The notes under the pieces: generated by a model
Database searches by the model: none
The model's input: the letters and a program-made list of their open reading frames with translations, nothing else
What the model was told of the DNA's origin: nothing
Translations under genes and position numbers: made by a program
Source: Limisphaerales bacterium
GTDB lineage: Bacteria; Patescibacteriota; Microgenomatia; UBA1400; PJMF01
NCBI GenBank assembly: GCA_044350895.1
Contig: JBILGT010000002.1
Location: 36,554 to 100,553 of the forward strand
Direction of reading: 5' to 3'
DNA: 64,000 bases
Shown here: in pieces, positions 9,607-55,346 of the stretch
Layout: each line of letters starts with the position of its first letter
Position numbering within the stretch: position 1 is the stretch's first letter

Positions 9607-9966
9607 ATGTTTTTTCTAGTACAAAAAGTATATGCTGCAGGCTGCTCAGATCTAGACTATGGTTCTCCCGAACTTAATTTAGGCAGAGTGCTTTGCTTGA
9701 GCGACAGCACAGCTGTTGAAGATGTCTATAAAGATCCAGCATTTCTTGTCAACTTAATTGTTAGCAATTTATTTGTTTTTGCTGGAATAATAATTTTTCT
9801 TCTTATTTTTTACGCTGGATTTAAATTTATCTCTCAAGGAACTAAGGGCAAAGAGGAAGCAAAAGGGATCATTACTGCCGCTGTGACTGGCTTAGTATTG
9901 ATGTTTGCAGCATATTGGGTCCTCCAGATTGTAAAAACATTAACGGGGACTGACGTTGCACTCTAA
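9607..9966 (+). CDS. VirB2/TrbC-like pilin-type small membrane protein, paralog 1
   Basis: TM1 (LVNLIVSNLFVFAGIIIFLLIFYAGF), loop 'SQGTKGKEEAKG', TM2 (IITAAVTGLVLMFAAYWVLQIV). A TATAAT lies 12 bp upstream. Confidence 0.5.
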   Translation: MFFLVQKVYAAGCSDLDYGSPELNLGRVLCLSDSTAVEDVYKDPAFLVNLIVSNLFVFAGIIIFLLIFYAGFKFISQGTKGKEEAKGIITAAVTGLVLMFAAYWVLQIVKTLTGTDVAL

Positions 9967-9969
9967 ATT

Positions 9970-10419
9970 ATGAAAACAAATATAGTACTCAAAACTATTA
10001 GCTATATCTATCTTTTTGCTGTTATTATCAGTGCATTTTTCTGTATCCCAGGCCTCACCTTCGCACAAACTGCTGAAGACTTAGGGGTTGGAACAATTGC
10101 AGCCCCTCCTGGCGTGGATAAATATAATGCTGCCGCACAAGCGCAAGGTGCCGATATTGCGATCGTTTACTTTATGTCGAACATGATCAAGCTCTTTACG
10201 GTAGTTGCTGGAATCTGGGTAATTTTGAATGGCATTCTTGCAGGCTACTACTTTGTGCAATCAAGTGGAGACGCAGGCACCTATGAAAAAGCCCGTAATC
10301 AAATTACTCAAAGTGCCATTGGTCTTGCAATGATTGTACTTTCATATATGTTTACTGGGCTTGTTGGTTTACTTTTCTTTGGAGATGCGGGTATATTCTT
10401 AAATCCAAGGTTAAAATAG
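9970..10419 (+). CDS. VirB2/TrbC-like pilin-type small membrane protein, paralog 2
   Basis: Signal peptide plus 'VVAGIWVILNGILAGYYFVQSSGDAGTYEKARNQITQSAIGLAMIVLSYMFTGLVGLLFFGDAG'. Confidence 0.55.
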   Translation: MKTNIVLKTISYIYLFAVIISAFFCIPGLTFAQTAEDLGVGTIAAPPGVDKYNAAAQAQGADIAIVYFMSNMIKLFTVVAGIWVILNGILAGYYFVQSSGDAGTYEKARNQITQSAIGLAMIVLSYMFTGLVGLLFFGDAGIFLNPRLK

Positions 10420-10420
10420 T

Positions 10421-10969
10421 ATGAAACAGTTTATACTCAGCATCGTTGTTGCACTCTCAGTGCTATTCTTCGTCCCTACAGTGGCGCAAGCACAATCATG
10501 TCCTAGCAACCGGACTTGTAGTGGCGGTTGTACCGCTGTGGGCCAATGTGTTGGAAACAAACGATGTGTTAGTGTACAAGGCGTTATTTACCCTGGAACA
10601 GTTGATTGTGGTTCTGCCCAACTTGGCGGAGTTAAGCCACCTCCAGCTATTACTAGTTTTAATTTTCAAACTGGCTCTGCATCAGGCAATGGCATCATCC
10701 TCTTTTTATCTAGATTGATCAATCTTTTTGTCATAGTGTGTGGAATCTGGACAATGTTTAACTTTTTATATTCTGGATACATTCTAATTTCTTCTCAGTC
10801 AGATACTAAAAATCAAAGTGAAATAAAAGATAAATTAACAATGACAGCCATTGGCTTGGCTATTATTGCCGGAGCATACATAATCGCTGGACTAATCGGT
10901 CTTATTTTCTTTGGAGATGCGGGATATATTCTCAATCCGCAGCTCGTCAGCGCACTTGATAGAGGGTAA
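10421..10969 (+). CDS. VirB2/TrbC-like pilin-type small membrane protein, paralog 3 (with Cys-rich N-terminal extension)
   Basis: Signal peptide, a CPSNRTCSGGCTAVGQCVGNKRC module, then the shared two-helix domain ending 'IGLIFFGDAGYILNPQL' (same C-terminal tail as paralog 2). Confidence 0.55.
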   Translation: MKQFILSIVVALSVLFFVPTVAQAQSCPSNRTCSGGCTAVGQCVGNKRCVSVQGVIYPGTVDCGSAQLGGVKPPPAITSFNFQTGSASGNGIILFLSRLINLFVIVCGIWTMFNFLYSGYILISSQSDTKNQSEIKDKLTMTAIGLAIIAGAYIIAGLIGLIFFGDAGYILNPQLVSALDRG

Positions 10970-11025
10970 TATGGCTGGAAGATAGACTTTCTTCTGTCAT
11001 ATGGGTATAATTACAGGCGTACATT

Positions 11026-11406
11026 ATGATGATATACATAGCACAAAAACTTACCCAGTTCGGTTCTGGTTTTGCACCAGTTGTTGATACTGCATGGACA
11101 GATGGCTCAGATACAGAAGCAGGGGTACTTACCAATTTAGAAGCATTCATTTCACAAATCTTGGGACTGATTACAGTAATTGGTAGTTTGTTCTTTGTTA
11201 TCAACTTTCTCATGGCTGCCTTGAGCTGGATCACCGCAGCAGGTGACAGCGGCAAAATTCAAAAAGCTCGCGACCAGATGATTCAATCTACGTTGGGACT
11301 TGTTATTATGGTAGGCTCTTATGCAATAATTGGACTTATTGGATCAGTGGTTGGTATCGATATCTTACAACCAGGCCAAGCATTAAAGATGTTGATCCCA
11401 AGGTAA
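11026..11406 (+). CDS. VirB2/TrbC-like pilin-type small membrane protein, paralog 4
   Basis: 'WITAAGDSGKIQKARDQMIQSTLGLVIMVGSYAIIGLIG'. Confidence 0.55.
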   Translation: MMIYIAQKLTQFGSGFAPVVDTAWTDGSDTEAGVLTNLEAFISQILGLITVIGSLFFVINFLMAALSWITAAGDSGKIQKARDQMIQSTLGLVIMVGSYAIIGLIGSVVGIDILQPGQALKMLIPR

Positions 11407-11411
11407 ATTTA

Positions 11412-11840
11412 ATGTCATTAAACAAGTTACAAAAGACCATCTCATCAGTTACAACAACTACAGCACTTTTAGTGAGTAGTTCTACTTTGGCACTCGCTCA
11501 AACAGGCATAACCAATCCAGCAATTGGCATTTATGGTAAAGACCCAAATGCGGCCAAGGCCGGCACTTCATTTGCGGGGTATGTCGCTATCATGTGGAAA
11601 GCTATGATTTCAATTGGAGCATTACTAGTTCTCTTATACTTTGTATGGGGTGCAATCGATTGGATAACAGCCGCTGGAGATAAAGGTAAAATGGAAGGTG
11701 CCCGCAATAAAATGCTCAATGCCTTTATTGGTTTACTGCTATTGGTCAGCTCATACACCATAATTGCATTCGTTGGCTGGCTATTCTTTGGAACTGAATT
11801 CAACATCTTACAACCAATATTTATATTTAATAATCCATAA
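11412..11840 (+). CDS. VirB2/TrbC-like pilin-type small membrane protein, paralog 5
   Basis: Signal peptide plus 'WITAAGDKGKMEGARNKMLNAFIGLLLLVSSY'. Confidence 0.55.
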   Translation: MSLNKLQKTISSVTTTTALLVSSSTLALAQTGITNPAIGIYGKDPNAAKAGTSFAGYVAIMWKAMISIGALLVLLYFVWGAIDWITAAGDKGKMEGARNKMLNAFIGLLLLVSSYTIIAFVGWLFFGTEFNILQPIFIFNNP

Positions 11841-11845
11841 TATTT

Positions 11846-12187
11846 ATGCCAACACCAACAAAAATAGACTTACAAGGAGGCGCAATCCTCGCACAAATTC
11901 CAGGCACTGAGAACATGGAATCGCCAAATGCCGGCTTTGCCCGTCTTATTGGGAATATTCTTGCCGCAGTCATGGTTGTTTCATTACTCCTTGTTCTCTA
12001 CTTTTTAGTAGTTGGTGCAATTGAGTGGATTACGGCAGCTGGCGATAAAGGTAAAATTGATTCAGCACGTAACAAAATGACAAATGCTGTTATCGGCATC
12101 ATAGTTTTATCTTCCGTTACCGCACTATTTGCAGCTGTACAATATTTCTTAGGTGTCAATGTACTTACATTTTCATTTACCCCGTAA
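11846..12187 (+). CDS. VirB2/TrbC-like pilin-type small membrane protein, paralog 6
   Basis: 'WITAAGDKGKIDSARNKMTNAVIGIIVLSS'. Confidence 0.55.
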   Translation: MPTPTKIDLQGGAILAQIPGTENMESPNAGFARLIGNILAAVMVVSLLLVLYFLVVGAIEWITAAGDKGKIDSARNKMTNAVIGIIVLSSVTALFAAVQYFLGVNVLTFSFTP

Positions 12188-12325
12188 GGAGCGATTGATT
12201 CGCATACTTTAGAGTCTGGGTAAATCAAACTGGTACTTGCAAGCACTAAAAGTATATTGCTAAGCTATTACTTGACGGAGAGCATATAATATAATCTAGT
12301 GTAAGATACACTTACAAGGAGCAAG

Positions 12326-12739
12326 ATGATTGGTAAATTAAACACGGCATTAGTAGCCAGTACAGTAACTGGATTTTTAAGTGCACCAATTGCATTTGCA
12401 GTGGAACCTACTTCAGGAGTTACTTCAGCAGTTGGCACAGTCACAGCAGGAACTGGATGGGCAGATAACATCGGTGGTTTAATCACTAGTGTCTTAACTA
12501 TCGTCATGGTTGTTGCTATCCTACTCGTCTTACTCTACCTCATCATGGGTGGTATCGAATGGATCACATCTGGTGGTGATAAAGGTAAAACTGAAGGTGC
12601 TCGTAACAAAATTACCTCAGCTATCATTGGTATCATCATCTTGGCAGCAGCTTATGCGCTCGTCCAACTTGTCGCCTACGTATTAGGATTTGCAAGTCTG
12701 AACGCAGCTCTCGAATCATTACCTAGAATCGGTACGTAA
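12326..12739 (+). CDS. VirB2/TrbC-like pilin-type small membrane protein, paralog 7
   Basis: AAGGAG RBS 8 bp upstream of the ATG and a TATAAT around 12286. Signal peptide plus 'WITSGGDKGKTEGARNKITSAIIGIIILAAAYALVQLVAYVLGFASLNAAL'. Confidence 0.6.
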   Translation: MIGKLNTALVASTVTGFLSAPIAFAVEPTSGVTSAVGTVTAGTGWADNIGGLITSVLTIVMVVAILLVLLYLIMGGIEWITSGGDKGKTEGARNKITSAIIGIIILAAAYALVQLVAYVLGFASLNAALESLPRIGT

Positions 12740-13179
12740 TAACAATAATAATGAATTTAATTAAAAGGAGTTACATGTTAAATAAAATTCAAAAAGCAGC
12801 AGCAGCAACTGCGGGAGTCGCAGCCAGCTTACTAACCACTGCAGTAGCATACGCTAAAGATACCAGTGCTATAGGCACAGTCACACCAGGTACAGGTTGG
12901 GCAGATAACATCGGTGTTTTAATCACCAGTGTCCTCACCATCGTCATGGTTGTTGCTATCTTGCTCGTCTTACTTTACCTCATCATGGGTGGTATCGAAT
13001 GGATCACATCTGGTGGTGACAAAGGTAAAACTGAAGGTGCTCGTAACAAAATTACTTCAGCTATCATCGGTATTATCATCTTGGCCGCATCATATGCACT
13101 CGTCCAACTTGTCGCCTACGTCTTAGGATTTGCAAGTCTTAATGCCGCCCTGCTCTCATTGCCTCAAATCGGTAAGTAA
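12433..13179 (+). repeat. tandem duplication (~300 bp units, ~440 bp period) of pilin-type gene bodies
   Basis: 12461-12739 and 12901-13179 align base-for-base with only scattered substitutions (e.g. gcagataacatcggtg[g/t]tttaatcac...). Confidence 0.8.
12751..13179 (+). CDS. VirB2/TrbC-like pilin-type small membrane protein, paralog 8 (near-identical tandem copy of paralog 7)
   Basis: The probable true start is 12775 (AAAGGAG RBS just upstream; MLNKIQKAAAATAGVAASLLTTAVAYA signal peptide). The mature domain is about 90% identical at DNA level to paralog 7. Confidence 0.6.
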   Translation: MNLIKRSYMLNKIQKAAAATAGVAASLLTTAVAYAKDTSAIGTVTPGTGWADNIGVLITSVLTIVMVVAILLVLLYLIMGGIEWITSGGDKGKTEGARNKITSAIIGIIILAASYALVQLVAYVLGFASLNAALLSLPQIGK

Positions 13180-13202
13180 TATTTTTAAAATTAGAATTTC
13201 AG

Positions 13203-13230
13203 AAACCCCCATCTTGTATGGGGGTTTTTG
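13203..13230 (+). terminator. rho-independent terminator after pilin paralog 8
   Basis: AAACCCCCA-tcttgta-TGGGGGTTT followed by a T-run. Confidence 0.7.
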
Positions 13231-13266
13231 GTATATTAGGTGTGTTTGTTACACATTTGACCCACT

Positions 13267-13821
13267 TTGATGTATAATGTAAGTCTAATGAAAAAAGCCG
13301 TTATATCACTTGTATTAGTACTCATATTTAATTTTTTAGCTGTATTTAGCAATCCCATAGTATTCGCAGCAGACGAGGTAAAATTAGTCAAAGATGGTAG
13401 TACCTACTATCTGAGTACTGAAGGTTCTGCATCCACCACGCGCAGTGGACAAACCTATCGTCTTGTTCCTGTTGAGCAAACCGCCGCAACCAGTGCTGCA
13501 AAAACAGCATCTCGTTCAGCAGTTGTTCCGCCTCCTGGATATGTAGGTAATATTGGAGAGCTTATCAGCTTCTTACTTAAGTTGGTAATGATTGTGGCAA
13601 TTTTACTTATTCTTCTCGCCTTTATCACCGCTGGTTTTGAGTGGATTACATCTGGAGGTGACAAAGGTAAAACTGAAAGTGCCCGAAACCGCATTGTCGC
13701 AGCTTTTGTTGGTGTACTCATCTTATCTGCCGCATACGCATTAACACTACTCGTTGCCTATGTTCTTGGTTTTGATAGTATTGATGATGTTTTTGGCAGC
13801 ATTAAGCGAATTAATCCATAG
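13267..13821 (+). CDS. VirB2/TrbC-like pilin-type small membrane protein, paralog 9
   Basis: Probable start 13288 (MKKAVISLVLVLIFNFLAVFSNPIVFA). 'WITSGGDKGKTESARNRIVAAFVGVLILSAAYALTLLVAYVLGF'. Confidence 0.55.
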   Translation: MMYNVSLMKKAVISLVLVLIFNFLAVFSNPIVFAADEVKLVKDGSTYYLSTEGSASTTRSGQTYRLVPVEQTAATSAAKTASRSAVVPPPGYVGNIGELISFLLKLVMIVAILLILLAFITAGFEWITSGGDKGKTESARNRIVAAFVGVLILSAAYALTLLVAYVLGFDSIDDVFGSIKRINP

Positions 13822-13844
13822 GTCACAAACTCTACATTCACTTC

Positions 13845-14372
13845 TTGCTGTTCTATCAGGTATACTATAGAGATTCAAAATCTATGCGCCGTAACACATT
13901 TACCTATCAAGTAATTTCATTTTTTAGAGCTGCAATCTTCAGTGTCGCACTACTTGCAAACGTCGCTGGCCCAGTCTACGCCCAAACCCAGGCTTGGTCA
14001 GGTGTGTGTGTCGGCCCAGCTCAGATTAATGCAGCAACGAAAGCCAATGATGTTGCTACTATCCAAGGCGTTCAGTGTCTACTTGCCAATGTATTTACTG
14101 TGATCATAACAATCGTCGGTCTGGCAGGATTTGTCATGTTTATTGTAGGTGCCTTTAGATATTTGGTTTCTGGCTCAAATAGCAAGGGTATTGAAGCCGC
14201 CAAAAATACCATTCAATACATGGTGATCGGCATTATTGTAACGCTCAGTGGTTTCATCATTCTGAATATGATTTCTTCATTCACCGGAATCGACGTCATT
14301 ACTCGATTTGTTATTCCAAGTTCAGATCGTGGTACTTCTGCAGATGACTATCCAATTCCAGTTGGAATGTAA
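13845..14372 (+). CDS. VirB2/TrbC-like pilin-type small membrane protein, paralog 10 (divergent)
   Basis: Probable start 13884 (MRRNTF...signal peptide). 'IVGLAGFVMFIVGAFRYLVSGSNSKGIEAAKNTIQYMVIGIIVTLSGFIILNMI'. Confidence 0.45.
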   Translation: MLFYQVYYRDSKSMRRNTFTYQVISFFRAAIFSVALLANVAGPVYAQTQAWSGVCVGPAQINAATKANDVATIQGVQCLLANVFTVIITIVGLAGFVMFIVGAFRYLVSGSNSKGIEAAKNTIQYMVIGIIVTLSGFIILNMISSFTGIDVITRFVIPSSDRGTSADDYPIPVGM

Positions 14373-33493: not shown

Positions 33494-34684
33494 TTGCCCA
33501 TCATGAAAGAACATCCAATACCACAAGATATTACTAGCTATCGCTTTCACATTGTTGGAAGCATGACACTCAAACAATTTGGTGAAGTTGCAGGTGGTGT
33601 TGTTATCTGTTTTATACTCTATCAGACAAATCTTCCCGCAATCATCAAATGGCCACTCATTGCTATCCTTTTTGGAGGCGGACTTGCTGCAGCTTTTGTT
33701 CCTATTGAAGAGCGTCCCTTAAGTCACTGGATTGCAACATTTTTTAGTATTCTCTATAAACCAACACAATTTTTCTGGAAACGTGCCTACAACATTCCTG
33801 CTCCGTTTTTGTTTAAAGGTAATAGTGATAATATGCTGCAAATGCAGGAGCTCGACCTTACTCCTGCGCGACGGCAACGAATTAAAGAATTTATTTCTTC
33901 AACAGGAACAACCGAAACTGTCGGTGAGTTTACTAACGAAGAGCAATCTCGCATGTCCGATATTCTCAATATTTTCCAGACTCAAACAACGATTGGAGTT
34001 CGAGAAGAACATACTGAAGTCATTCATAAACCGAATCTCACTGTTCGAGTACGAAGCATGCGGCAATTTGAAATTCCTAGTGAAGAAGTTGAAAAAGAAC
34101 ATTTTACAGTAAATTCGCTTGATAGTGTAGAAAATTTGGACTCTACAATTGTTTTACAAACTGACGAACCTACAAGTAGCTCATACAAAAAGAACAGCTA
34201 CCTCGAGTCACAACAAGTTGCACAGGGGCTTGAAATTCCCGAAATTCAACCTGTTGATCTTGGCATAAAGAACACTCCAGAAGAAGTATCAGCACTGATT
34301 CAACAACAAAACATCAATCCTACAGAACGTGCATACCTAGAAGACACACAGCCACATTTCAAAATAGAAAGTGCTTCTGAATCTGTTCATTTTAACAATC
34401 AGCTTCCCTTTCCCAGTCAACCAACTGTTGCAAATAAACTGGTCGGTATGGTTCTCACTCCAAATAATGATTTGGTCCCAGGAGCAATTGTAGAGATAAA
34501 AACTGCAAATGGACACGTATCAAGAGCAGTAAAAACTAATGCATTGGGACAGTTTTTCATTACTACACCGCTTAATAATGGCGACTACGTTGTGTCAGTA
34601 GAAAAAGAAGGACAGACATTTAGACCAGTTTCAATTCAATTAGTTGGTAAAATCGTAGAACCTTTGGAAATCCGGAGTAGCTAA
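33494..34684 (+). CDS. two-TM N-terminal domain protein (VirB3/PrgI-like topology) with C-terminal carboxypeptidase-regulatory/transthyretin-like beta-sandwich
   Basis: N-terminal hairpin 'GGVVICFILYQTNLPAIIKWPLIAILFGGGLAAAFV'. C-terminal 'GMVLTPNNDLVPGAIVEIKTANGHVSRAVKTNALGQFFITTPLNNGDYVVSVEKEG' resembles a CarbopepD_reg-like fold. Confidence 0.4.
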   Translation: MPIMKEHPIPQDITSYRFHIVGSMTLKQFGEVAGGVVICFILYQTNLPAIIKWPLIAILFGGGLAAAFVPIEERPLSHWIATFFSILYKPTQFFWKRAYNIPAPFLFKGNSDNMLQMQELDLTPARRQRIKEFISSTGTTETVGEFTNEEQSRMSDILNIFQTQTTIGVREEHTEVIHKPNLTVRVRSMRQFEIPSEEVEKEHFTVNSLDSVENLDSTIVLQTDEPTSSSYKKNSYLESQQVAQGLEIPEIQPVDLGIKNTPEEVSALIQQQNINPTERAYLEDTQPHFKIESASESVHFNNQLPFPSQPTVANKLVGMVLTPNNDLVPGAIVEIKTANGHVSRAVKTNALGQFFITTPLNNGDYVVSVEKEGQTFRPVSIQLVGKIVEPLEIRSS

Positions 34685-35984: not shown

Positions 35985-38048
35985 ATGCCCAGTTTATCGT
36001 CGTTACTTCCAACGCTTCCGTTTCCATTTGGCCAAAAGAAAAAGCCTGAGAATTCGCCATCACCAGAGGAGCTGCAGGAACAGAAAAACTTGGAAAAGTT
36101 ACAACAGTTTTCTCGAGGCCTAGTTACTATCCAAGATATCATTGCTCCTGAAGCTATTGAGGTTGATTTTACGTATCAGAAAATCAACTCTACCTATACT
36201 AGAACTCTGTTTGTAGCTGGCTATCCCCGAACTGTCCCAGCCAACTGGCTCGCGCCACTCATCAACTACCCACATCAGATTACAACTTCAATGTTTATCT
36301 TTCCGGTAGATTCAGCTGAGATTCTCGATAACCTCAAACGCAAAATCACTGAAATGGAAGCTGAAATTCAATCAGATTTACGTGCAGGTAAGATTTCAAA
36401 CATTAATACCGAAGTTAAACTAGAAGACGCACGATTCATTCGCGAAGAACTAGCAAAAGGTGCGGAGCGGTTTTATCAATTTGGTCTGTATGTCACTATT
36501 CAAGCCAAAGATAAAGAAGAACTCGATAAGATCACTAAAAGCATTCAATCAACACTCGGTTCTCTCTTAATCGTATCCAAGAAAGCTACGCTGCAAATGG
36601 ATGAGGGATTTAAGACAACGTTACCAATGGGAGTTGATAAGTTGCTCGTCACTCGAAATATGGATACCACGTCACTCGCAACAACATTCCCGTTTACTTC
36701 ATCTGAACTTACGATGGAAACAGGCATTATGTACGGCATTAATGAGCATAATGACTCGCTCGTTATCTTTGACCGTTTCAAGATGGAAAACGCCAACATG
36801 GTTATCTTTGCTAAGTCAGGTGCTGGAAAATCTTACACCGTCAAACTAGAGATTTTGCGCCAGCTTATGTTTGGTGCTGAAGTGATTGTTATGGACCCTG
36901 AACATGAGTATGAAGATATGTCTGTAGCCGTAGCTGGAACGTACATTAATTTTACTTTTAATTCTGAAACAAAGATCAACCCTTTTGACCTCGCCAATCT
37001 CTATGAGGAAGGTGAAAATGAACTTGGGCAAAAAATTATTTCATTACATGGTCTTCTCAAAGTTATGTTGGGTGATATGACACCACAACAAGATGCTTTA
37101 CTCGACCGCGCCTTGGTAGCAGCTTATAAAGCTAAAGGCATTACTCCAGATCCAGCAACACAAGTCAACGAACCACCACTCATGGAAGATGTCTATAAAG
37201 CTTTGATTGGTATGGAAAATCGAGATGCTGATGATATTTCAGCCAGACTAGAAAAATTTATCACAGGTTCATTCCGAGGAATTTTCGATCAAAAATCAAA
37301 CATTGATATTAAAAGCCAATTAACGGTCTTTTCAGTTAAAGAAATGGAAGAAGAGATGCGTCCAATTGCGATGTACATCATCTTGGACTTTATCTGGACT
37401 CGTATTCGCAAAGACCTCAAGAAGCGCCTTCTTATTATTGATGAGGCCTGGTACTTTATGAAGCATCCTGATTCAGCTTCATTTATCTACTCAATGGTAA
37501 AGCGTGCTCGTAAATATTACTTGGGTATTACCACCATCACGCAAGATGTTGAAGACTTTTTGCACACAGATTACGGTAAAGCAATTGTGACAAACGCTTC
37601 CATCCAGTTTTTGATGAAGCAGTCTACAGCGTCAATTCCGGTTCTTGCAGAAACGTTCTATCTTTCACAAGGTGAACGACAACTGCTCGTCACAGCAGAT
37701 GTTGGTGAAGGAATTTTCTTTGCAGGGCAAAATCACGTTGCGCTTCGTGTTGTGGCTAGTGAAGAAGAACACACCTTAATTACAACCAACCCTGAAGAAG
37801 TACTACAAAACCGCCGTGTTGCAGAACAAACCAGAATTCAAGCTGCAACTGATTTGGCTGAGAAAAAACCATCATATCCGATGCCACCACGACAGCCTGC
37901 TCAAAGAGAACCAGCTGCACAAGCTGCAATGCCTGCCGTCTTAGTCAAAACAGCTGATACAACTTCTGCTGCTGCGACTGGTCGACCACAGTACATGCCA
38001 GATTCAATTGATAATTACAAACCACCTTCTAAACCAATCAAACAATAG
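35985..38048 (+). CDS. virB4: type IV secretion ATPase VirB4 (Gram-positive TcpF/PrgJ/TraE-like)
   Basis: N-terminal 'IAPEAIEVDFTYQKINSTYTRTLFVAGYPRTVPANWLAPL...SMFIFP', Walker A 'FAKSGAGKSYT', Walker B 'LLIIDEAWYFM'. 687 aa. Confidence 0.8.
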   Translation: MPSLSSLLPTLPFPFGQKKKPENSPSPEELQEQKNLEKLQQFSRGLVTIQDIIAPEAIEVDFTYQKINSTYTRTLFVAGYPRTVPANWLAPLINYPHQITTSMFIFPVDSAEILDNLKRKITEMEAEIQSDLRAGKISNINTEVKLEDARFIREELAKGAERFYQFGLYVTIQAKDKEELDKITKSIQSTLGSLLIVSKKATLQMDEGFKTTLPMGVDKLLVTRNMDTTSLATTFPFTSSELTMETGIMYGINEHNDSLVIFDRFKMENANMVIFAKSGAGKSYTVKLEILRQLMFGAEVIVMDPEHEYEDMSVAVAGTYINFTFNSETKINPFDLANLYEEGENELGQKIISLHGLLKVMLGDMTPQQDALLDRALVAAYKAKGITPDPATQVNEPPLMEDVYKALIGMENRDADDISARLEKFITGSFRGIFDQKSNIDIKSQLTVFSVKEMEEEMRPIAMYIILDFIWTRIRKDLKKRLLIIDEAWYFMKHPDSASFIYSMVKRARKYYLGITTITQDVEDFLHTDYGKAIVTNASIQFLMKQSTASIPVLAETFYLSQGERQLLVTADVGEGIFFAGQNHVALRVVASEEEHTLITTNPEEVLQNRRVAEQTRIQAATDLAEKKPSYPMPPRQPAQREPAAQAAMPAVLVKTADTTSAAATGRPQYMPDSIDNYKPPSKPIKQ

Positions 38049-38151: not shown

Positions 38152-39675
38152 ATGCAGCAATCAACACTTTCTAATGAAGAAGTTTCTACAATTTGGCAAC
38201 AGTACTGCAACTTACTCCAAAAAGAGATGTCTTCTGCAGTTTACAACACGTGGATTCTCTCAAATCCCATTACAGAAATTGAGGTTATAGATGACACAAA
38301 AGCCGTTGTCACCATTACTAGTCCAACAGCTTTCCACTCCACAAACCTCAAAAAGAACTTACATATGCAAGTCAAACAAGCATTAGATGTTCTTCTACAA
38401 AGAAATTGTGAAGTTTCATATTTAGTGGGTGATCCACAAAAGAAACGAGAAACTCCAAAAGAACCTGCTACAGGATTCACACAAGTGGTTTCAGCTTCGT
38501 TTACACAGCAACAGTTTGCAGCTACTTCTACTCCACCGGCATTTGCCAATCACACACAAAACCAATCCCCGCGGGTTGAAGATTTATTTTCTGAGAATAC
38601 GATGATGAATGCAGCAGAAGAACGTATTCAAATGCAAGCGCGCGGCATTGGTTTGAGAATTGATTACACCTTTGCCACGTTTGCAGTCTCCACCACCAAC
38701 GAAATGGCACATGCAGCAGCTACAGCAGTATCAAACAGACCAGGTCAGTCATACAATCCACTCTTTCTATATGGTGGTGTGGGTGTCGGCAAAACGCATC
38801 TCATGCACGCGATTGGCCATAATATTTTGAGAGCAAATCCGAATGCCAAGATTATCTACTGTACTGGTGAAGAGTTTACCAATGACATTGTGCATGCCAT
38901 TCAAACAAAAAAGGCTAGCCACTTCAAAGATCGCTATAGATCAGCAAATGTTTTATTAATTGACGATATTCAGTTTATTGCTGGTAAAAACGCTGTCCAA
39001 GAAGAGTTTTTTCACACATTTAACGCACTTACCAAGCAATTTAGCCAAATAGTGCTTACTTCAGATCGGCCACCTCACGAAATAACATTACTTGAGGATC
39101 GGCTGAGATCACGCTTTGAAGCTGGACTGATGATTGATATTCAACAACCATCATTTGAATTAAGAACAGCAATAGTCCTAGTAAAAGCCAAAGCACAACA
39201 AATCGCAATCACCATAGATCTTGCAAAAGTGATTGCTTCAAAAGTCGAGAGTGCCCGAAAGATAGAAGGCATTATCACGAGTATTCGATCCGAAATTGAA
39301 CTTAAACACCGAGAGCTCAACCTAGAATTGATTGAAGATATTCTGCAAGTAGAAGTCGAAGTTAAACGACCTCGGATAAAAGTTGCTCCTGCTGATGTCA
39401 TTAAAACTGTGGCTAATCACTATCACGTTAAGCAGTCATCATTAAAAGGTTCAAGTAGGCTTAAAAGTCTTGTTACAGCGCGTCATATCGCGATGTATTT
39501 ACTCAAAAAAGAGCTTTCTTTACCACTCACCGAAATCGGTCGTTGGTTTGCAAGTCGTGACCACACTAGTGTGTTACATGCAGTGAAAAAAGTCGAAAAA
39601 GATATGGCGCTCAGTGATGAATTGCGTCAGGATGTGTCAGCACTCCAGATGACATTGGCTGCGATTTCAAAATAA
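38152..39675 (+). CDS. dnaA: chromosomal replication initiator DnaA
   Basis: Walker A 'LFLYGGVGVGKTHLMHAIG', 'LLIDDIQFIAGKNAVQEEFFHTFNAL', C-terminal domain IV 'TARHIAMYLLKKELSLPLTEIGRWFASRDHTSVLHAVKKVE'. Confidence 0.92.
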   Translation: MQQSTLSNEEVSTIWQQYCNLLQKEMSSAVYNTWILSNPITEIEVIDDTKAVVTITSPTAFHSTNLKKNLHMQVKQALDVLLQRNCEVSYLVGDPQKKRETPKEPATGFTQVVSASFTQQQFAATSTPPAFANHTQNQSPRVEDLFSENTMMNAAEERIQMQARGIGLRIDYTFATFAVSTTNEMAHAAATAVSNRPGQSYNPLFLYGGVGVGKTHLMHAIGHNILRANPNAKIIYCTGEEFTNDIVHAIQTKKASHFKDRYRSANVLLIDDIQFIAGKNAVQEEFFHTFNALTKQFSQIVLTSDRPPHEITLLEDRLRSRFEAGLMIDIQQPSFELRTAIVLVKAKAQQIAITIDLAKVIASKVESARKIEGIITSIRSEIELKHRELNLELIEDILQVEVEVKRPRIKVAPADVIKTVANHYHVKQSSLKGSSRLKSLVTARHIAMYLLKKELSLPLTEIGRWFASRDHTSVLHAVKKVEKDMALSDELRQDVSALQMTLAAISK

Positions 39676-50988: not shown

Positions 50989-51492
50989 TTAGCGTTTGTT
51001 TTTACGCAGTGCCTGAATAAGCGACCTCAGCTCATCATAGAGTATGAGCACTGTGGGTGTGATGATGCAGAGAATAAATCCCCAGGGTGATTTTATAAAC
51101 CGAATGATATATCCAAACTTGGGTATCACTCCAATCACTTTGCCAATTACTTTTTCTTCAGTTATGACTTCTACGTCTGCAGTTTGATTGGCATCACCTT
51201 TTGTTACAAATTTTCCTGGATTTTTGGACTGCACTTCTTGAATACGGTGGGTGACTGTTCTGTCGTTTTCATCTTTGAAAGTAACCACATCTGCTTTTAT
51301 ATACTCAGGCTGTTTCTTAATGATGATGGCATCTCCAGTCATGATGCTTGGTTCCATTGAGCCAGATTGAACAACGTAGGTGCGCCAGGGGACAGTGTTG
51401 CGAAACCAGCTTACCAACTTGTAGCTAATAAATCCAAAAAACAAGGCAATCACAATGTAGACCACAATGTGTTTGAACGTAGTTTTTTTCAT
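50989..51492 (-). CDS. sipW: SipW-type (archaeal/ER-type S26B) signal peptidase I
   Basis: 'VVQSGSMEPSIMTGDAIIIKK' and 'TVTHRI', with both N- and C-terminal TM anchors. 167 aa. Confidence 0.75.
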   Translation of the reverse strand: MKKTTFKHIVVYIVIALFFGFISYKLVSWFRNTVPWRTYVVQSGSMEPSIMTGDAIIIKKQPEYIKADVVTFKDENDRTVTHRIQEVQSKNPGKFVTKGDANQTADVEVITEEKVIGKVIGVIPKFGYIIRFIKSPWGFILCIITPTVLILYDELRSLIQALRKNKR

Positions 51493-51497
51493 GAAGT

Positions 51498-52163
51498 TTA
51501 TCTACCAGGAAGAATCTGTCGTAGGTTAAATGTAATATCAAATGACGTACTATCACTTTGCACTTCATTGCCAAAATCTTTTCCTTCAGTGGTCCAATCA
51601 ATACTGACAGTAACGCTCTGCCCTGGTGGAATTGTCACTTTTCCAGCATTTGCTTTCCAGAGTGCTTCATACTGAGCTCCGTTTTCTGCTGAAAGGTCAC
51701 TCGTGAAAATTGTCCGTTCTTGATTGTTTTCCTTGAGCTTGATGACTGTTTGAATATTTTTGCCCAGCTCACCCAAATTTTCACCTGGATTGGCGCATGT
51801 AGTATCTTCAAGAGCTTCTGGCTCATTGCAGTCATTCTCAAAATTTTTAACATTGGAAAGCGCAAAACTAAATTCGCCCGGTAAACTTCCTACATTATTA
51901 ATCACCCAAGATTTACCACCAGAAACTACGTTTTGTGCACCAACGCCACTTACTTGTAGACTCTCGGCTTGTTGATTGTTAATTCCTTCAACAGTCATGT
52001 CTAGCGTACCAACTACAAAACTACTCTGGGCTGATTGTTCGCGGTCCACAAAAAGCGCTTGCGTCGTCATCAGTCCAATGACGCCTACAAGTGAAATCAG
52101 AAATAAGCTTTTGAGCAGTCCAAGTTTTCGCAGCATGGTTGTGGGTTGTTGTAATCTTCTCAT
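51498..52163 (-). CDS. TasA/camelysin-family protein with SipW-cognate signal peptide
   Basis: 'TTQALFVDREQSAQSSFVVGTLDMTVEG' (pattern AxF.D.E.S..N.F..GTLD). C-terminus '...DSTSFDITFNLRQ'. Confidence 0.6.
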   Translation of the reverse strand: MRRLQQPTTMLRKLGLLKSLFLISLVGVIGLMTTQALFVDREQSAQSSFVVGTLDMTVEGINNQQAESLQVSGVGAQNVVSGGKSWVINNVGSLPGEFSFALSNVKNFENDCNEPEALEDTTCANPGENLGELGKNIQTVIKLKENNQERTIFTSDLSAENGAQYEALWKANAGKVTIPPGQSVTVSIDWTTEGKDFGNEVQSDSTSFDITFNLRQILPGR

Positions 52164-52170
52164 ACTTTAC

Positions 52171-52746
52171 CTATTCCGCCCAAGCACCAGAAGTTACTGT
52201 GTTCTGTAGTGTCTCGGTATCTGTAAAATGACTTTCTGGACTTTGACTGACAAATGAAATATTAAATGCACAGGTTTGGTTTTTTAGTGCTACATCTTTA
52301 TTATTGAACTTCACAACAAAGACAAGATCTTCCCATTTTTCTTGATCAGATAACTCACCAGAAAATGAGAGATTCATGAGATTTCCTGAATAGACAGGAC
52401 TCCAATCTTGCATAATAACCCCTTCGAGACTTTGACAGAATGTATCTGAACCAGCTGTTTTTTGAACGCTGACAGAGTAGGGGAATTCAAGTTTTCCACT
52501 ATTCTTAATTCTCACTGTTTCTACCTGGAATCCACTGGGAATCATTCCAGTGACTGAGAAGAGGAGAGATTTGGAGAGCTCGTTGGCAGTGTCGTTGGTG
52601 GAGAAATCTAATGTTGTTGCTTCAAATCTATTGTTATGAACATCTTCCTGATCAAACAAATCAGCATCAGTGAATTGGGTGTACGCGGAAAACACTGCTA
52701 TTAAAAACAAGCTGAGTTTAAATAGAAGTCCGAATGTTGGTCTCAT
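52171..52746 (-). CDS. TasA/camelysin-like protein (divergent) with SipW-cognate-like signal peptide
   Basis: 'AYTQFTDADLFDQEDVHNNRFEATTLDFS'. C-terminus '...CAFNISFVSQ'. Confidence 0.5.
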   Translation of the reverse strand: MRPTFGLLFKLSLFLIAVFSAYTQFTDADLFDQEDVHNNRFEATTLDFSTNDTANELSKSLLFSVTGMIPSGFQVETVRIKNSGKLEFPYSVSVQKTAGSDTFCQSLEGVIMQDWSPVYSGNLMNLSFSGELSDQEKWEDLVFVVKFNNKDVALKNQTCAFNISFVSQSPESHFTDTETLQNTVTSGAWAE

Positions 52747-52748
52747 GT

Positions 52749-53252
52749 TTAGGACTGAGTATTGTCATGCTTTTTTGGTTTTTCTTTAAAAATTTCACTA
52801 CCCACGATCAAGATGAGTGGAATGGCGATAAGTAAAAACATACCAAATGGCTGCTGACTGTGAACGAGCAGATATCCAGCTTTTGGAATTCTAAACTGGT
52901 ATTTTCCTACGATATTTTGTTGCGTGATTGGATCTGGGTCGGTGGCTTGGTTGTTATCACCTTTGGTGGTGAGCTTGCCCTCATCATCACTCAAAATACG
53001 GTGAGTGACGGTTCTATTAGCAGCATCGTGGAACGTCACAATGTCATCTTTTTGATACGCATTTTGTGGTTTGATAAAAATAACATCCCCAGTCATGATT
53101 GTGGGCTCCATTGAACCTGACTGGACGATAAAACTTCTGAGTGGGAGTGGACTTGATTTGCTATTTGAAGCAGTTGTTGCAAAGCTAACGAGCACAAATG
53201 CAACGTAAAAAATCCAGAAAATACTACTGATAAATTGAAATGCTTTTTCCAT
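52749..53252 (-). CDS. sipW: SipW-type signal peptidase I (second copy)
   Basis: 'IVQSGSMEPTIMTGDVIFIKP' and 'TVTHRI'. 167 aa, same architecture as the copy at 50989..51492. Confidence 0.75.
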   Translation of the reverse strand: MEKAFQFISSIFWIFYVAFVLVSFATTASNSKSSPLPLRSFIVQSGSMEPTIMTGDVIFIKPQNAYQKDDIVTFHDAANRTVTHRILSDDEGKLTTKGDNNQATDPDPITQQNIVGKYQFRIPKAGYLLVHSQQPFGMFLLIAIPLILIVGSEIFKEKPKKHDNTQS

Positions 53253-53331
53253 ATTATTTCTTTAAAACGCTAATACGGAGGGCTTTCACCCTCCGTATGC
53301 TTAGTACTCGTCGATCCACTCCTCAACTAAG

Positions 53332-53970
53332 TTAAGAAGGGTTTACTTGTGTCAAATCAAATTGTGCTTGGAAACTTAATCCATCACTTTGGATTTCGTT
53401 GCCATAGGTAGCTGGGTCGTTTGCCCAGTTCATTTTGACTTTAACTGTTGCTCCAGCAGGAACTGCTACTGTGCCAGCGTTAGTATTCCACTGTGTAGCA
53501 TATTGGCCTTGATTTGAAGTTGCCAATGTTGAGGTTACAACAGCATCTTCTTCATCATAGTTACCATCGTTGTCGGTATCAATTTTGACAACAGCTGTGG
53601 TAGCTGCACCTAGTTCACCGAGTGCATCTGCTGCACAAGCTGGCTCTGTCACTAATTCTGGCTCATTACAACCATTCTCAGTGTTGGTAATACTGTTAAG
53701 ACGGAATGTGAGATTGCCTGGAACAGTACCAGCGTTTCGAATTGTCCATTCCTTTTCACCGGTCACAGTGCCATCTACACCGATGTTATCAACATTGATA
53801 CTTTCAAATGCAGTGCCGTTTTGGCCATCTACAGTCATATCCAATGTTCCAGCAGCAAATGTGTTTGAAGCTGAAGTCTCTGTATCACTGAAGAGAGCTT
53901 GGGTAAGTGCGTAACCGCCTCCGATGAGTGCTGAGACGATGATGAGAAAGAGCAGGGCTTTCTTTTTCAT
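53332..53970 (-). CDS. TasA/camelysin-family protein with canonical SipW-cognate signal peptide
   Basis: 'ALTQALFSDTETSASNTFAAGTLDMTVDG'. C-terminus '...DGLSFQAQFDLTQ'. First gene after a ~245 bp AT-rich promoter region. Confidence 0.7.
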   Translation of the reverse strand: MKKKALLFLIIVSALIGGGYALTQALFSDTETSASNTFAAGTLDMTVDGQNGTAFESINVDNIGVDGTVTGEKEWTIRNAGTVPGNLTFRLNSITNTENGCNEPELVTEPACAADALGELGAATTAVVKIDTDNDGNYDEEDAVVTSTLATSNQGQYATQWNTNAGTVAVPAGATVKVKMNWANDPATYGNEIQSDGLSFQAQFDLTQVNPS

Positions 53971-54215
53971 TGATGAACCTTTCTTTTTATAATATGTACA
54001 TATTTATTTTTTTATGGACGAAATACTACACATTTTAAGTGTAGATAAAGTCCAATAAATATGCATTTTTGATTGACCGATCAGCTCAACTAATCTGGAT
54101 TTTCAAAAAATGGCATATTTATATTCATTTATAAAAATAAATAAAATAAATCACTTACTACAATACTTATAATTGAAATAGGTAGTCAACTAGATACAAA
54201 TAGCTATTAACTAGA

Positions 54216-55346
54216 TCATTTGCCTTCTGATGGGTGTTTTTTGCGTCTACGTTTGATGATGAAAAATATAAAAAGCACTAGTAATAGTATAATACAAAAA
54301 TGTATGTAAAATGTGCGTAGCATGAATCTATTATTCGCCTTTTGTGTGGGGTTATCCACAGAACTATCTACTTCAGTTTGAGCGCCGAGTACTTTCCCTT
54401 CATTTTTTTGACCAATTACTTCTTCTGTATTACTAAGATTCCCATGATTTTGATTTTCCTTGGGTGTGGGAGGTACTTTTTTTCGTTCCAAGATAACTTG
54501 CTTCGATGTTGGCCCAATGGCGCATCCTGAGCGAGCAGTAATACTGAAAAAGTAGTTTTTCTGTGGTGATAATCCTTGGGGTGAATACTCGGTTGTGTTC
54601 CCGACATCAATGGTGGGGTAGAGCAACTCGCCATCGGTAGTTCCAAAAGTGAGCTGATAGTTTGTTGCATTTGGCAGCGAGTTCCATCTCAGTTTTGTAG
54701 TAGTGAGATTATTGGGGTTTGGAATACTTGTAAGGTTGAGAGTTCCTTTTGGTGGTGTGTTGCTGCAAGGTTGAGGTGTTGGTGCTCCTGGATTCTGTGA
54801 TGGCTTTTGAGAGGGAAGAGGTGCGGGTTCTTTGATAGATTCATCACAACTAAAGCTGAGGTCAAAATCAACAGTTGCAGTGCTCCCTTGGTACTCATTC
54901 CCTGCTGATTTATTAAATAGTACATTCCAACTGTATTCACGCATTGTCGCTGCATTGAGTGTATCAATGTACAGTGGAGTTTCTGTTGTGAGTAACTTTC
55001 TTAGTGGAAAAGCGGTCAGTGGGGTATCTTTGGAAGTAACAGACAGTGTTAACTCATCCGACAAATCACTCTCTGAGTATGAACCGCTATGACGGGCTCG
55101 TACTCCCAGTTCGCAACCTTCGTCTTTTCGCTGATTATGAATACTCACTATTCTGTTGACGCTTTCGCCAGGAACCATATTGTCCGCAGTAAAGAATGGA
55201 GCATCAGAAGTAGAACTTTCACAAGCACCCTTCTGAGTACAGCGAATCACAATGTGCTGTTGGTCTGAAATAGCAAAAACACGATTGGGAACGGCTAGGA
55301 AAATAACACAACAACACAGAACAGTGGAAAAAAAACGCCAAAACAT
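54216..55346 (-). CDS. cell-surface protein: TasA-like N-terminal domain + fibronectin type III domain + C-terminal TM anchor with basic tail
   Basis: Signal peptide. The N-terminal domain ends 'TATVDFDLSFSCDES', like the TasA-like C-termini. FN3-like 'LTTTKLRWNSLPNATNYQLTFGT...YFFSITARS'. C-terminus 'FYIHFCIILLLVLFIFFIIKRRRKKHPSEGK'. Confidence 0.5.
   Translation of the reverse strand: MFWRFFSTVLCCCVIFLAVPNRVFAISDQQHIVIRCTQKGACESSTSDAPFFTADNMVPGESVNRIVSIHNQRKDEGCELGVRARHSGSYSESDLSDELTLSVTSKDTPLTAFPLRKLLTTETPLYIDTLNAATMREYSWNVLFNKSAGNEYQGSTATVDFDLSFSCDESIKEPAPLPSQKPSQNPGAPTPQPCSNTPPKGTLNLTSIPNPNNLTTTKLRWNSLPNATNYQLTFGTTDGELLYPTIDVGNTTEYSPQGLSPQKNYFFSITARSGCAIGPTSKQVILERKKVPPTPKENQNHGNLSNTEEVIGQKNEGKVLGAQTEVDSSVDNPTQKANNRFMLRTFYIHFCIILLLVLFIFFIIKRRRKKHPSEGK

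Follow-up and report, generated by a model that had tools for sequence, protein, structure and literature searches.

A predicted TasA-type surface fibre operon in a Microgenomates-type Patescibacterium, with a subunit that may plug its own groove and a membrane anchor without a donor strand

A large part of bacterial diversity falls within the Patescibacteria, whose cells presumably live attached to those of a host; to our knowledge, only type IV pili and type IV secretion systems (T4SS) have been tied to their surface biology so far. A stretch of 64,000 nucleotides of contig JBILGT010000002.1 (the window, meaning the whole stretch that was analysed) carries on its minus strand, at positions 50989 to 55346, a cluster of six genes that a preliminary description had taken for a SipW/TasA-like surface-fibre system. 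The question raised by this locus is whether these genes encode a fibre and, if so, how such a fibre would be started, ended and retained on the cell. On balance it seems probable that this chromosomal operon of a Patescibacterium of the Pacebacteria/Microgenomates type encodes a TasA-superfamily surface fibre, assembled without chaperones by donor-strand exchange. The TasA-type fibre itself, the presence of PF12389 in Patescibacteria and a layout like that of the haloarchaeal tafi cluster were already known; what is new is a subunit, named B here, that is predicted to be self-plugged, together with an anchor protein that has no donor strand.

Translation of the open reading frames (ORFs) confirmed the six minus-strand genes of the preliminary description, which follow each other 5' to 3' in the order anchor, A, SipW-a, B, C and SipW-b (lengths in amino acids, aa):

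54216..55346, minus strand: anchor protein, 376 aa (ORF translation)
53332..53970, minus strand: A, putative major TasA-like subunit, 212 aa (ORF translation)
52749..53252, minus strand: SipW-a, archaeal/endoplasmic reticulum (ER)-type signal peptidase I, 167 aa (TIGR02228)
52171..52746, minus strand: B, minor TasA-fold subunit, 191 aa (hhalign to the A/C family)
51498..52163, minus strand: C, paralogue of A, putative minor or adaptor subunit, 221 aa (43% identity to A)
50989..51492, minus strand: SipW-b, second archaeal/ER-type signal peptidase I, 167 aa (TIGR02228)

The spacers measure 79 bp (A/SipW-a), 2 bp (SipW-a/B), 7 bp (B/C) and 5 bp (C/SipW-b), and not 2-5 bp throughout as first given. 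Related loci were collected in a genome scan with one genome per species, in which 131 relatives of A were confirmed and the best 80 kept, representing 79 distinct loci.

Assignment of A to the TasA superfamily is supported by its match to PF12389 (Peptidase_M73; 36.7 bits, above the cutoff of 22.5), and against TIGR04088, the SipW-cognate signal peptide, it scores 18.5 bits for a cutoff of 19. Behind a predicted SipW-type signal peptide A displays the donor-strand motif ALFSDTETSASNTFAAGTLD (aa 25-44, nt 53839-53898), the segment aa 26-38 corresponding to TasA 28-38; within the fibre, residues 28-38 of one TasA subunit fill out the sheet of its neighbour, and the strand extends only after the subunit has itself been complemented (PMC9674648). 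C, which is 43% identical to A, has the corresponding motif ALFVDREQSAQSSFVVGTLD at aa 36-55. Comparison of an A family profile (54 sequences) with the PDB retrieved TasA as the sole match (5of1, 8aur; E about 0.001), aligned over the donor strand and first strand, with a weak match over the C-terminal strand N.YQG...F.F as well; between A and TasA, conservation is highest in the donor strand and in the C-terminal strand of the protomer interface. The AlphaFold2 (AF2) monomer of A has a predicted local distance difference test score (pLDDT) of 85.5 and consists of a β-rich domain with residues 27-44 unstructured and the N-strand undocked, a prediction consistent with the TasA-like jelly-roll/β-sandwich fold; it contains no equivalent of the C-terminal tail of B described below. 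Two features had been attributed to all three subunits. The SipW-cognate signature is indeed discernible by eye in A, B and C, with B and C unmatched by TIGR04088 and with B in a divergent register (TDA/DLFDQE...N.F..TTLD), while the C-terminal F.L.Q motif is clear in A and C only.

A metalloprotease role, evoked by the name Peptidase_M73, was rejected since reading of the A, B and C translations revealed no zinc-binding or metalloprotease motif, and the JGI label on homologues was likewise rejected, as these are proteins of ~200 aa that are predicted to fold. Two segments, ENGCNEPE...C (A aa 98-112, nt 53635-53679) and YGNEIQSD (aa 189-208, nt 53347-53406), are near-invariant in the A/C family and include two conserved Cys and several Asn, Glu and Asp; by analogy with AbpX and cannulae, a disulfide bond, a metal (Ca2+) site or both might reside there. 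B and the anchor each have conserved Cys pairs of their own.

B did not match any family hidden Markov model (HMM) significantly, and its place among the TasA-fold subunits comes from hhalign to the A/C family (95-96% probability, E 1e-8 to 4e-8), the alignment spanning the signal peptide, the donor strand and the first strands. With A identified by PF12389 and C by its identity to A, the three TasA-fold subunits previously announced are thus upheld. The B family comprises 334 clusters at 50% identity (E <= 1e-3), and several of its multidomain members pass the PF12389 cutoff. In addition to an N-terminal donor-like strand (aa 28-47, nt 52606-52665), B ends in what appears to be a donor-strand mimic, HFTDTETLQNTVTSGAWAE (aa 173-191, nt 52174-52230). 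The consensus of this tail, F/G-x-[DA]-x-[ERK]-x(3)-N-x-[VI]-x-S-G-x-W, is found at the extreme C-terminus of every B of the 79 loci and resembles the N-terminal donor motifs of A (LFSDTETSASNTF) and of B itself. Moreover, positions A29/31, B32/34 and B176/178 co-vary, being DE/DE/DE in 22 loci, AR/AR/AR in 18 loci (plus near variants) and DK/xK/Y[RQ] in 8 loci, and the mutual information observed was reached by none of 5000 permutations. A donor profile found its best match at the C-terminus in 56-61% of B proteins compared to 10-13% of shuffled controls. In the AF2 model of B (77 homologues; pLDDT 91.2) the tail forms a β-strand at residues 175-186 (pLDDT 90-97), and the N-terminal strand region (residues 23-47) is an undocked coil (pLDDT 71-77). 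Hence, donor-strand mimicry of the tail is argued for by its position, its covariation and the modelled strand, not by HMM significance; the prediction is that this tail docks as a β-strand in cis, where it would fill the groove of B.

Longer relatives of B keep the tail internally, with a linker and then a Lamin Tail Domain (LTD) behind it, which suits a structural strand belonging to the B domain. An engineered precedent exists in sc-AbpX, a TasA-superfamily protein in which the donor strand, moved to the C-terminus, docks in the groove (bioRxiv 10.64898/2026.01.04.697558). Among the relatives P0206 (646 aa), P0172, P0184, P0187, P0216 and P0227, some fuse the B domain and tail to LTDs, FN3-like domains or others; in P0206 a Peptidase_S24 (SipW-like) region precedes the B domain and LTD, which may be a genuine fusion of SipW and B or the product of merging two genes in annotation.

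The 376-aa protein encoded upstream of A had been described as a TasA-like N-terminal domain followed by FN3, a transmembrane segment and KRRRKK, and this architecture holds. After an ordinary signal peptide (aa 1-25) comes an N-domain (aa ~26-170) with a B-like TasA fold, then a Pro-rich linker, the FN3 domain (aa ~203-288), a conserved KVLGAQTE motif (aa 318-325, window 54372-54395), a transmembrane segment (aa 346-364) and KRRRKK (aa 365-370). The fn3 family (PF00041) matches at 27 bits (cutoff 25; aa 212-284), and the anchor family profile matches FN3 structures with E 1.5e-12. A word-indexed homologue search, even when queried with an alignment, returned 5 true relatives of this protein, and the remaining anchors were harvested from the genome loci. 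With 7 sequences hhalign of the N-domain to the A family reached only 31% probability; it became convincing once locus-derived anchors were added (18 orthologues), giving 96.7% probability to the B family (E 3.4e-10, 149 columns) and 92.4% to the A/C family (E 5e-7, 121 columns). Both alignments are colinear up to the C-terminal N.YQG..FD..F strand, and in the alignment with B the gap of the anchor coincides exactly with the donor segment of B. In agreement with this, the anchor does not contain an A.F.D...N.F motif.

The anchor was previously proposed to be TapA-like. TapA has a complete Ig fold with a donor-like N-terminus and, being donor-only, can only start a fibre (PMC10151520). The 376-aa protein keeps the fold without the donor segment and would therefore be an acceptor-only membrane anchor acting at the fibre end opposite to that of TapA, so that this part of the earlier proposal is not sustained. 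All anchor orthologues have in common I.C....C, F..N.VPG, N.YQG..FD..F.C, [VI]LG, the transmembrane segment and a basic tail, and the middle part varies (FN3, Lamin-Tail-like or nothing), which, judging from these sequences, makes the FN3 domain an accessory insert. A sortase-type signal was considered and not retained, since [VI]LG lies 20-45 residues ahead of the transmembrane segment and the cluster holds no sortase. The C-terminal module present in all anchors ([VI]LG, a spacer of 15-45 aa, transmembrane segment, basic tail) was also seen on surface proteins that have no TasA-like domain and are encoded just 5' of A in Shapirobacteria-like loci (L066:5846-6580, L070:5836-6579, L083:5481-6578 and L077:2705-3862), three of them, all except that of L070, with Lamin-Tail-like motifs. 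This module may be an uncharacterised Patescibacterial signal for surface sorting or anchoring.

Both peptidases exceed the TIGR02228 cutoff of 51.85 bits (SipW-a 114.7, SipW-b 100.8), as expected from the two SipW-type enzymes first proposed, and remain below that of the Bacillus SipW equivalog NF046067 (107.4 and 100.9 bits, cutoff 190). By these matches they are enzymes of the same type as Bacillus SipW and not its orthologues. They are 42% identical to each other and share the motifs SGSMEP, THRI and KGD.N. The catalytic dyad is in place within a full triad, formed by S47 (SGSMEP), H84 (THRI) and D99 (KGDNN) in SipW-a and by S45, H82 and D100 in SipW-b; the Ser/His/Asp triad is intact in 80/80 SipW-a and 58/61 SipW-b orthologues. 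Beyond near-identical sequences the best match is of the own type for 79 of 80 SipW-a and 60 of 61 SipW-b proteins, indicating that they represent ancient paralogue groups and not recent duplicates.

HMM annotation of the related loci recovered the A-SipW-B core in about 77 of the 79. A second SipW lies 3' of B or C in 61 loci; C occurs in about 19, confined to a Pacebacteria-like clade, and an anchor N-domain in about 18, usually immediately 5' of A. The flanking genes vary among loci, and conservation of the same order in 79 independent loci means that the arrangement is not due to chance. In one 811-kb contig the five-gene core A-SipW-B-C-SipW (L003:8001-10947) is placed between tuf (EF-Tu) and rpsJ, in a ribosomal-protein gene region. 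Named homologues of A belong to Candidatus Pacebacteria, Woesebacteria, Shapirobacteria and "Patescibacteria group", some being already labelled TasA-family or SipW-dependent by NCBI, and the locus set includes Pacebacteria, Microgenomates, Roizman-, Shapiro-, Woese-, Levyi-, Falkow- and Moranbacteria, with one Aenigmatarchaeota and one Dehalococcoidales as outliers. Together with the sizes of the A and B families and with PF12389 having been reported in Patescibacteria by a database survey (PMC9245690), this distribution does not support the rarity outside Bacillus/Clostridia and archaea that had been assumed.

In the two outliers (L084/L085; Aenigmatarchaeota DPANN and Dehalococcoidales) 3-5 tandem TasA-like genes are followed by a longer SipW-type peptidase, a layout unlike the Patescibacterial core; both peptidase ORFs extend to the locus end. 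A 99%-identical contig (L007), obtained from lake samples, is titled 'Methylococcaceae bacterium', and dozens of third-party annotation (TPA) contigs of metagenome-assembled genomes (MAGs) among L009-L083 are titled 'uncultured Gammaproteobacteria' or 'Pseudomonadales'. Since the gene content of L002-L006 is Patescibacteria-like (L002 has the flanks of the window), those records are probably mislabelled or mis-binned.

Based on these data, the following assembly can be proposed. SipW-a and SipW-b would cleave A, B and C just ahead of the motif, between TQA and LFSDTE in A and between TDA and DLFDQE in B, which would free a donor strand at the N-terminus that corresponds to residues 28-38 of TasA. 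B, with its groove filled in cis by the C-terminal tail, would act like TapA or like TafC of the tafi cluster, offering a complete fold and a free N-strand; it would start the chain by complementing the first A and would hence end up at the distal tip. A, presumably the abundant subunit, would form the polymer head to tail, the N-strand of each copy inserting into the groove of the following one, and C would be a minor or adaptor variant. The N-strand left free at the end would be taken up by the N-domain of the 376-aa protein, which is acceptor-only; growth would stop there, and FN3 stalk, transmembrane segment and KRRRKK tail would tie the fibre to the membrane. The order that we infer is therefore B (tip/nucleator), A (with minor C) and anchor, and the likely use of the fibre would be adhesion or matrix formation by an episymbiotic cell. 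In a bolder version, which is advanced tentatively and with more doubt than conviction, Microgenomates-type Patescibacteria would build a fully end-capped chaperone-free fibre in which cis-complemented B nucleates and caps the tip, a B-derived acceptor-only anchor ends the base and the two ancient SipW paralogues release different subunits in order, this fibre being a main host-attachment organelle of the episymbionts.

Several points weigh against this proposal. The fibre and every contact between its subunits are predictions from genes and monomer models; the PF12389 scores of C (18.8 bits) and B (15.0 bits) fall under the cutoff of 22.5. The covariation rests on about three clades, and the permutations ignore phylogeny; a donor-strand HMM scores under 5 bits on the B tail in most loci, and the AF2 output shows this tail as a paired strand, not that the donor-strand groove is its site. 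An anchor lies near only about 18 of 80 clusters, and the fibre model has no explanation for the keeping of two SipWs. Some of these points bear on the role of the tail. In the same fibre, it could be a transient intramolecular chaperone displaced by the incoming donor, B then being an internal minor subunit or, with the freed tail entering another groove, a cross-linker, and not the permanent tip or nucleator. TasA monomers do self-complement (residues 48-61 are displaced) before being opened by donor-strand exchange (PMC9674648), B retains both an N-terminal strand and a groove, and covariation of tail and donor would be expected if they competed for the same kind of groove. However, the tail is internal in the multidomain relatives, directly before the linker and LTD, as suits a permanent strand, its AF2 confidence is very high and A has no equivalent of it, which together make a transient role unlikely.

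It could also be argued that A, B and C, once processed by SipW, are secreted or displayed on the surface without polymerising, as a monomeric coat, a set of adhesins or a protease of the camelysin kind, and that the 376-aa protein is unrelated to them, given that the fibre is supported by homology and prediction only, that the fold-search scores are modest and that most loci are devoid of an anchor. We regard this as improbable: the translations show no metalloprotease motif, conservation with TasA is highest in precisely the donor strand and the C-terminal interface strand, the N-strand is undocked in the AF2 monomers of A and B, and an acceptor-only transmembrane paralogue next to a self-complemented one would be hard to explain without strand exchange. 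Finally, SipW-a and SipW-b might be the general signal peptidases of the cell, encoded here by chance, with the TasA-like genes not specifically dependent on them; Patescibacterial genomes are reduced, a LepB-type gene was not sought beyond the window, and in one clade a single SipW accompanies A and B. Such a coincidence is very improbable: a SipW gene separates A from B in about 77 of the 79 loci irrespective of the flanks, even where these are tuf and rpsJ, A shows what appears to be the SipW-cognate motif, and one relative apparently fuses Peptidase_S24, the B domain and LTD. A donor-strand-exchange fibre started by B and held by the anchor thus continues to be the preferred explanation of the locus.

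Candidate regulatory elements were located in the noncoding sequence on both sides of A:

53971..54215, minus strand: intergenic region 5' of A, 245 bp, 23% GC (composition)
54160-54189, minus strand: candidate sigma-70-like site, consensus match only, in the 245-bp region 5' of A
54026-54044, minus strand: small hairpin with T-run, ~55 bp before the A start codon (folding; candidate element)
53269..53300, minus strand: GC-rich hairpin directly 3' of A, in the 79-bp spacer (stable fold)

The first of these corresponds to the AT-rich region of ~245 bp noted initially, and the sigma-70-like site and small hairpin in this leader could be, judging by sequence, a regulatory 5' element. The hairpin 3' of A is probably an attenuator or an mRNA-stabilising 3' structure. 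The A-to-SipW spacer folds stably in about 50 of 80 related loci (51 with a minimum free energy <= -10 kcal/mol), and in the spacers inspected a GC-rich hairpin follows A, with a stem sequence that varies among loci; a recurring hairpin of locus-specific sequence would suit a major-subunit gene that is strongly expressed and whose read-through is attenuated. Neither tRNA nor Rfam elements were detected within the 64-kb window. A dnaA gene lies at window 38152-39675 (plus strand; Bac_DnaA, 221 bits), so the window probably spans the chromosomal replication-origin region.

The T4SS pilins reported elsewhere in the window were also recovered, as ten tandem small genes matching PF18895 T4SS_pilin (window 9607-14372, plus strand). 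Genes for a PrgI-like protein and a VirB4/TraG-type ATPase are located 3' of them (33494-34684; 35985-38048), and giant proteins of 1408-1613 aa, one with a C-terminal M23 peptidase domain, are encoded in between. The pilin/PrgI/VirB4 set resembles the Patescibacterial T4SS described in bioRxiv 10.1101/2025.01.22.634366. As to the fibre operon, its being kept even in tiny genomes, once inside a ribosomal-protein region, recommends it as a candidate for a second organelle of attachment or matrix formation in Microgenomates. No study of the Patescibacterial system came to light in the literature searches, nor any of paired SipW paralogues or of a TasA-fold subunit that is cis-complemented by nature. 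The engineered self-complemented subunit would have its natural counterpart in the B family, and the anchor would be a natural acceptor-only subunit; together they suggest testable rules for the start, stop and cell retention of fibres built without chaperone or usher.

Compared with known systems, the predicted fibre shares with chaperone-usher pili donor-strand exchange and specialised end subunits, one without a donor strand and the other unable to accept one (FimH at the tip, FimI/PapH as terminator). The polarity is reversed, the acceptor-only protein being cell-proximal here, and there is no chaperone, usher or outer membrane; the two systems are evolutionarily unrelated. In relation to AbpA/AbpB and AbpX/cannulae (PMC9245690; bioRxiv 10.64898/2026.01.04.697558), the predicted C-terminal self-complementation of B is natural and coexists with an N-strand. 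A layout of tip, adapter, major subunit, anchor and peptidase has been noted for AbpX-type loci too; in bacterial loci of that type the anchors are SLH or LPXTG, whereas here a plain transmembrane segment with a basic tail is found.

For the haloarchaeal tafi cluster the proposed order runs from TafC, the tip and first donor, through the adapter TafE and the major subunit TafA to TafF, the N-domain of which accepts the last strand and which is anchored by a C-terminal transmembrane segment, with TafD as peptidase (PMC11821415). By analogy, the present locus would have in common with it the linear order of tip, adapter, major subunit and transmembrane anchor and a dedicated signal peptidase I in the cluster, and TafF would be the closest described analogue of the 376-aa anchor (PMC11821415). 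The tafi subunits use twin-arginine translocation (Tat) signals, whereas no twin-arginine motif is present at the N-termini of A (MKKKALLF...) and B (MRPTFGLL...), and that of C (MRRLQQ...) is without the Tat consensus context. TafC has a laminin-G adhesin domain, in contrast to B, a bare domain whose relatives carry LTDs, and tafi has a single peptidase where two are encoded here.

The tapA-sipW-tasA operon of Bacillus subtilis also has a dedicated ER/archaeal-type signal peptidase gene between the fibre genes, a major subunit that combines a signal peptide of the SipW-cognate type (putative in A) with an N-terminal donor motif and a C-terminal N.YQG/F.F strand, and a minor partner, complete in its own fold (in B by prediction), whose donor strand is on offer to the next subunit. 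The Patescibacterial host aside, the locus departs from the Bacillus operon in having two SipW paralogues, the additional A-like subunit C and a transmembrane-anchored protein, apparently acceptor-only, with no Bacillus counterpart. The minor partner differs as well, TapA being an Ig-fold protein and B a TasA-fold paralogue that would be closed by its own C-terminal strand. According to the models, it is B, and not the 376-aa protein, that is predicted to be the functionally TapA-like element of the system.

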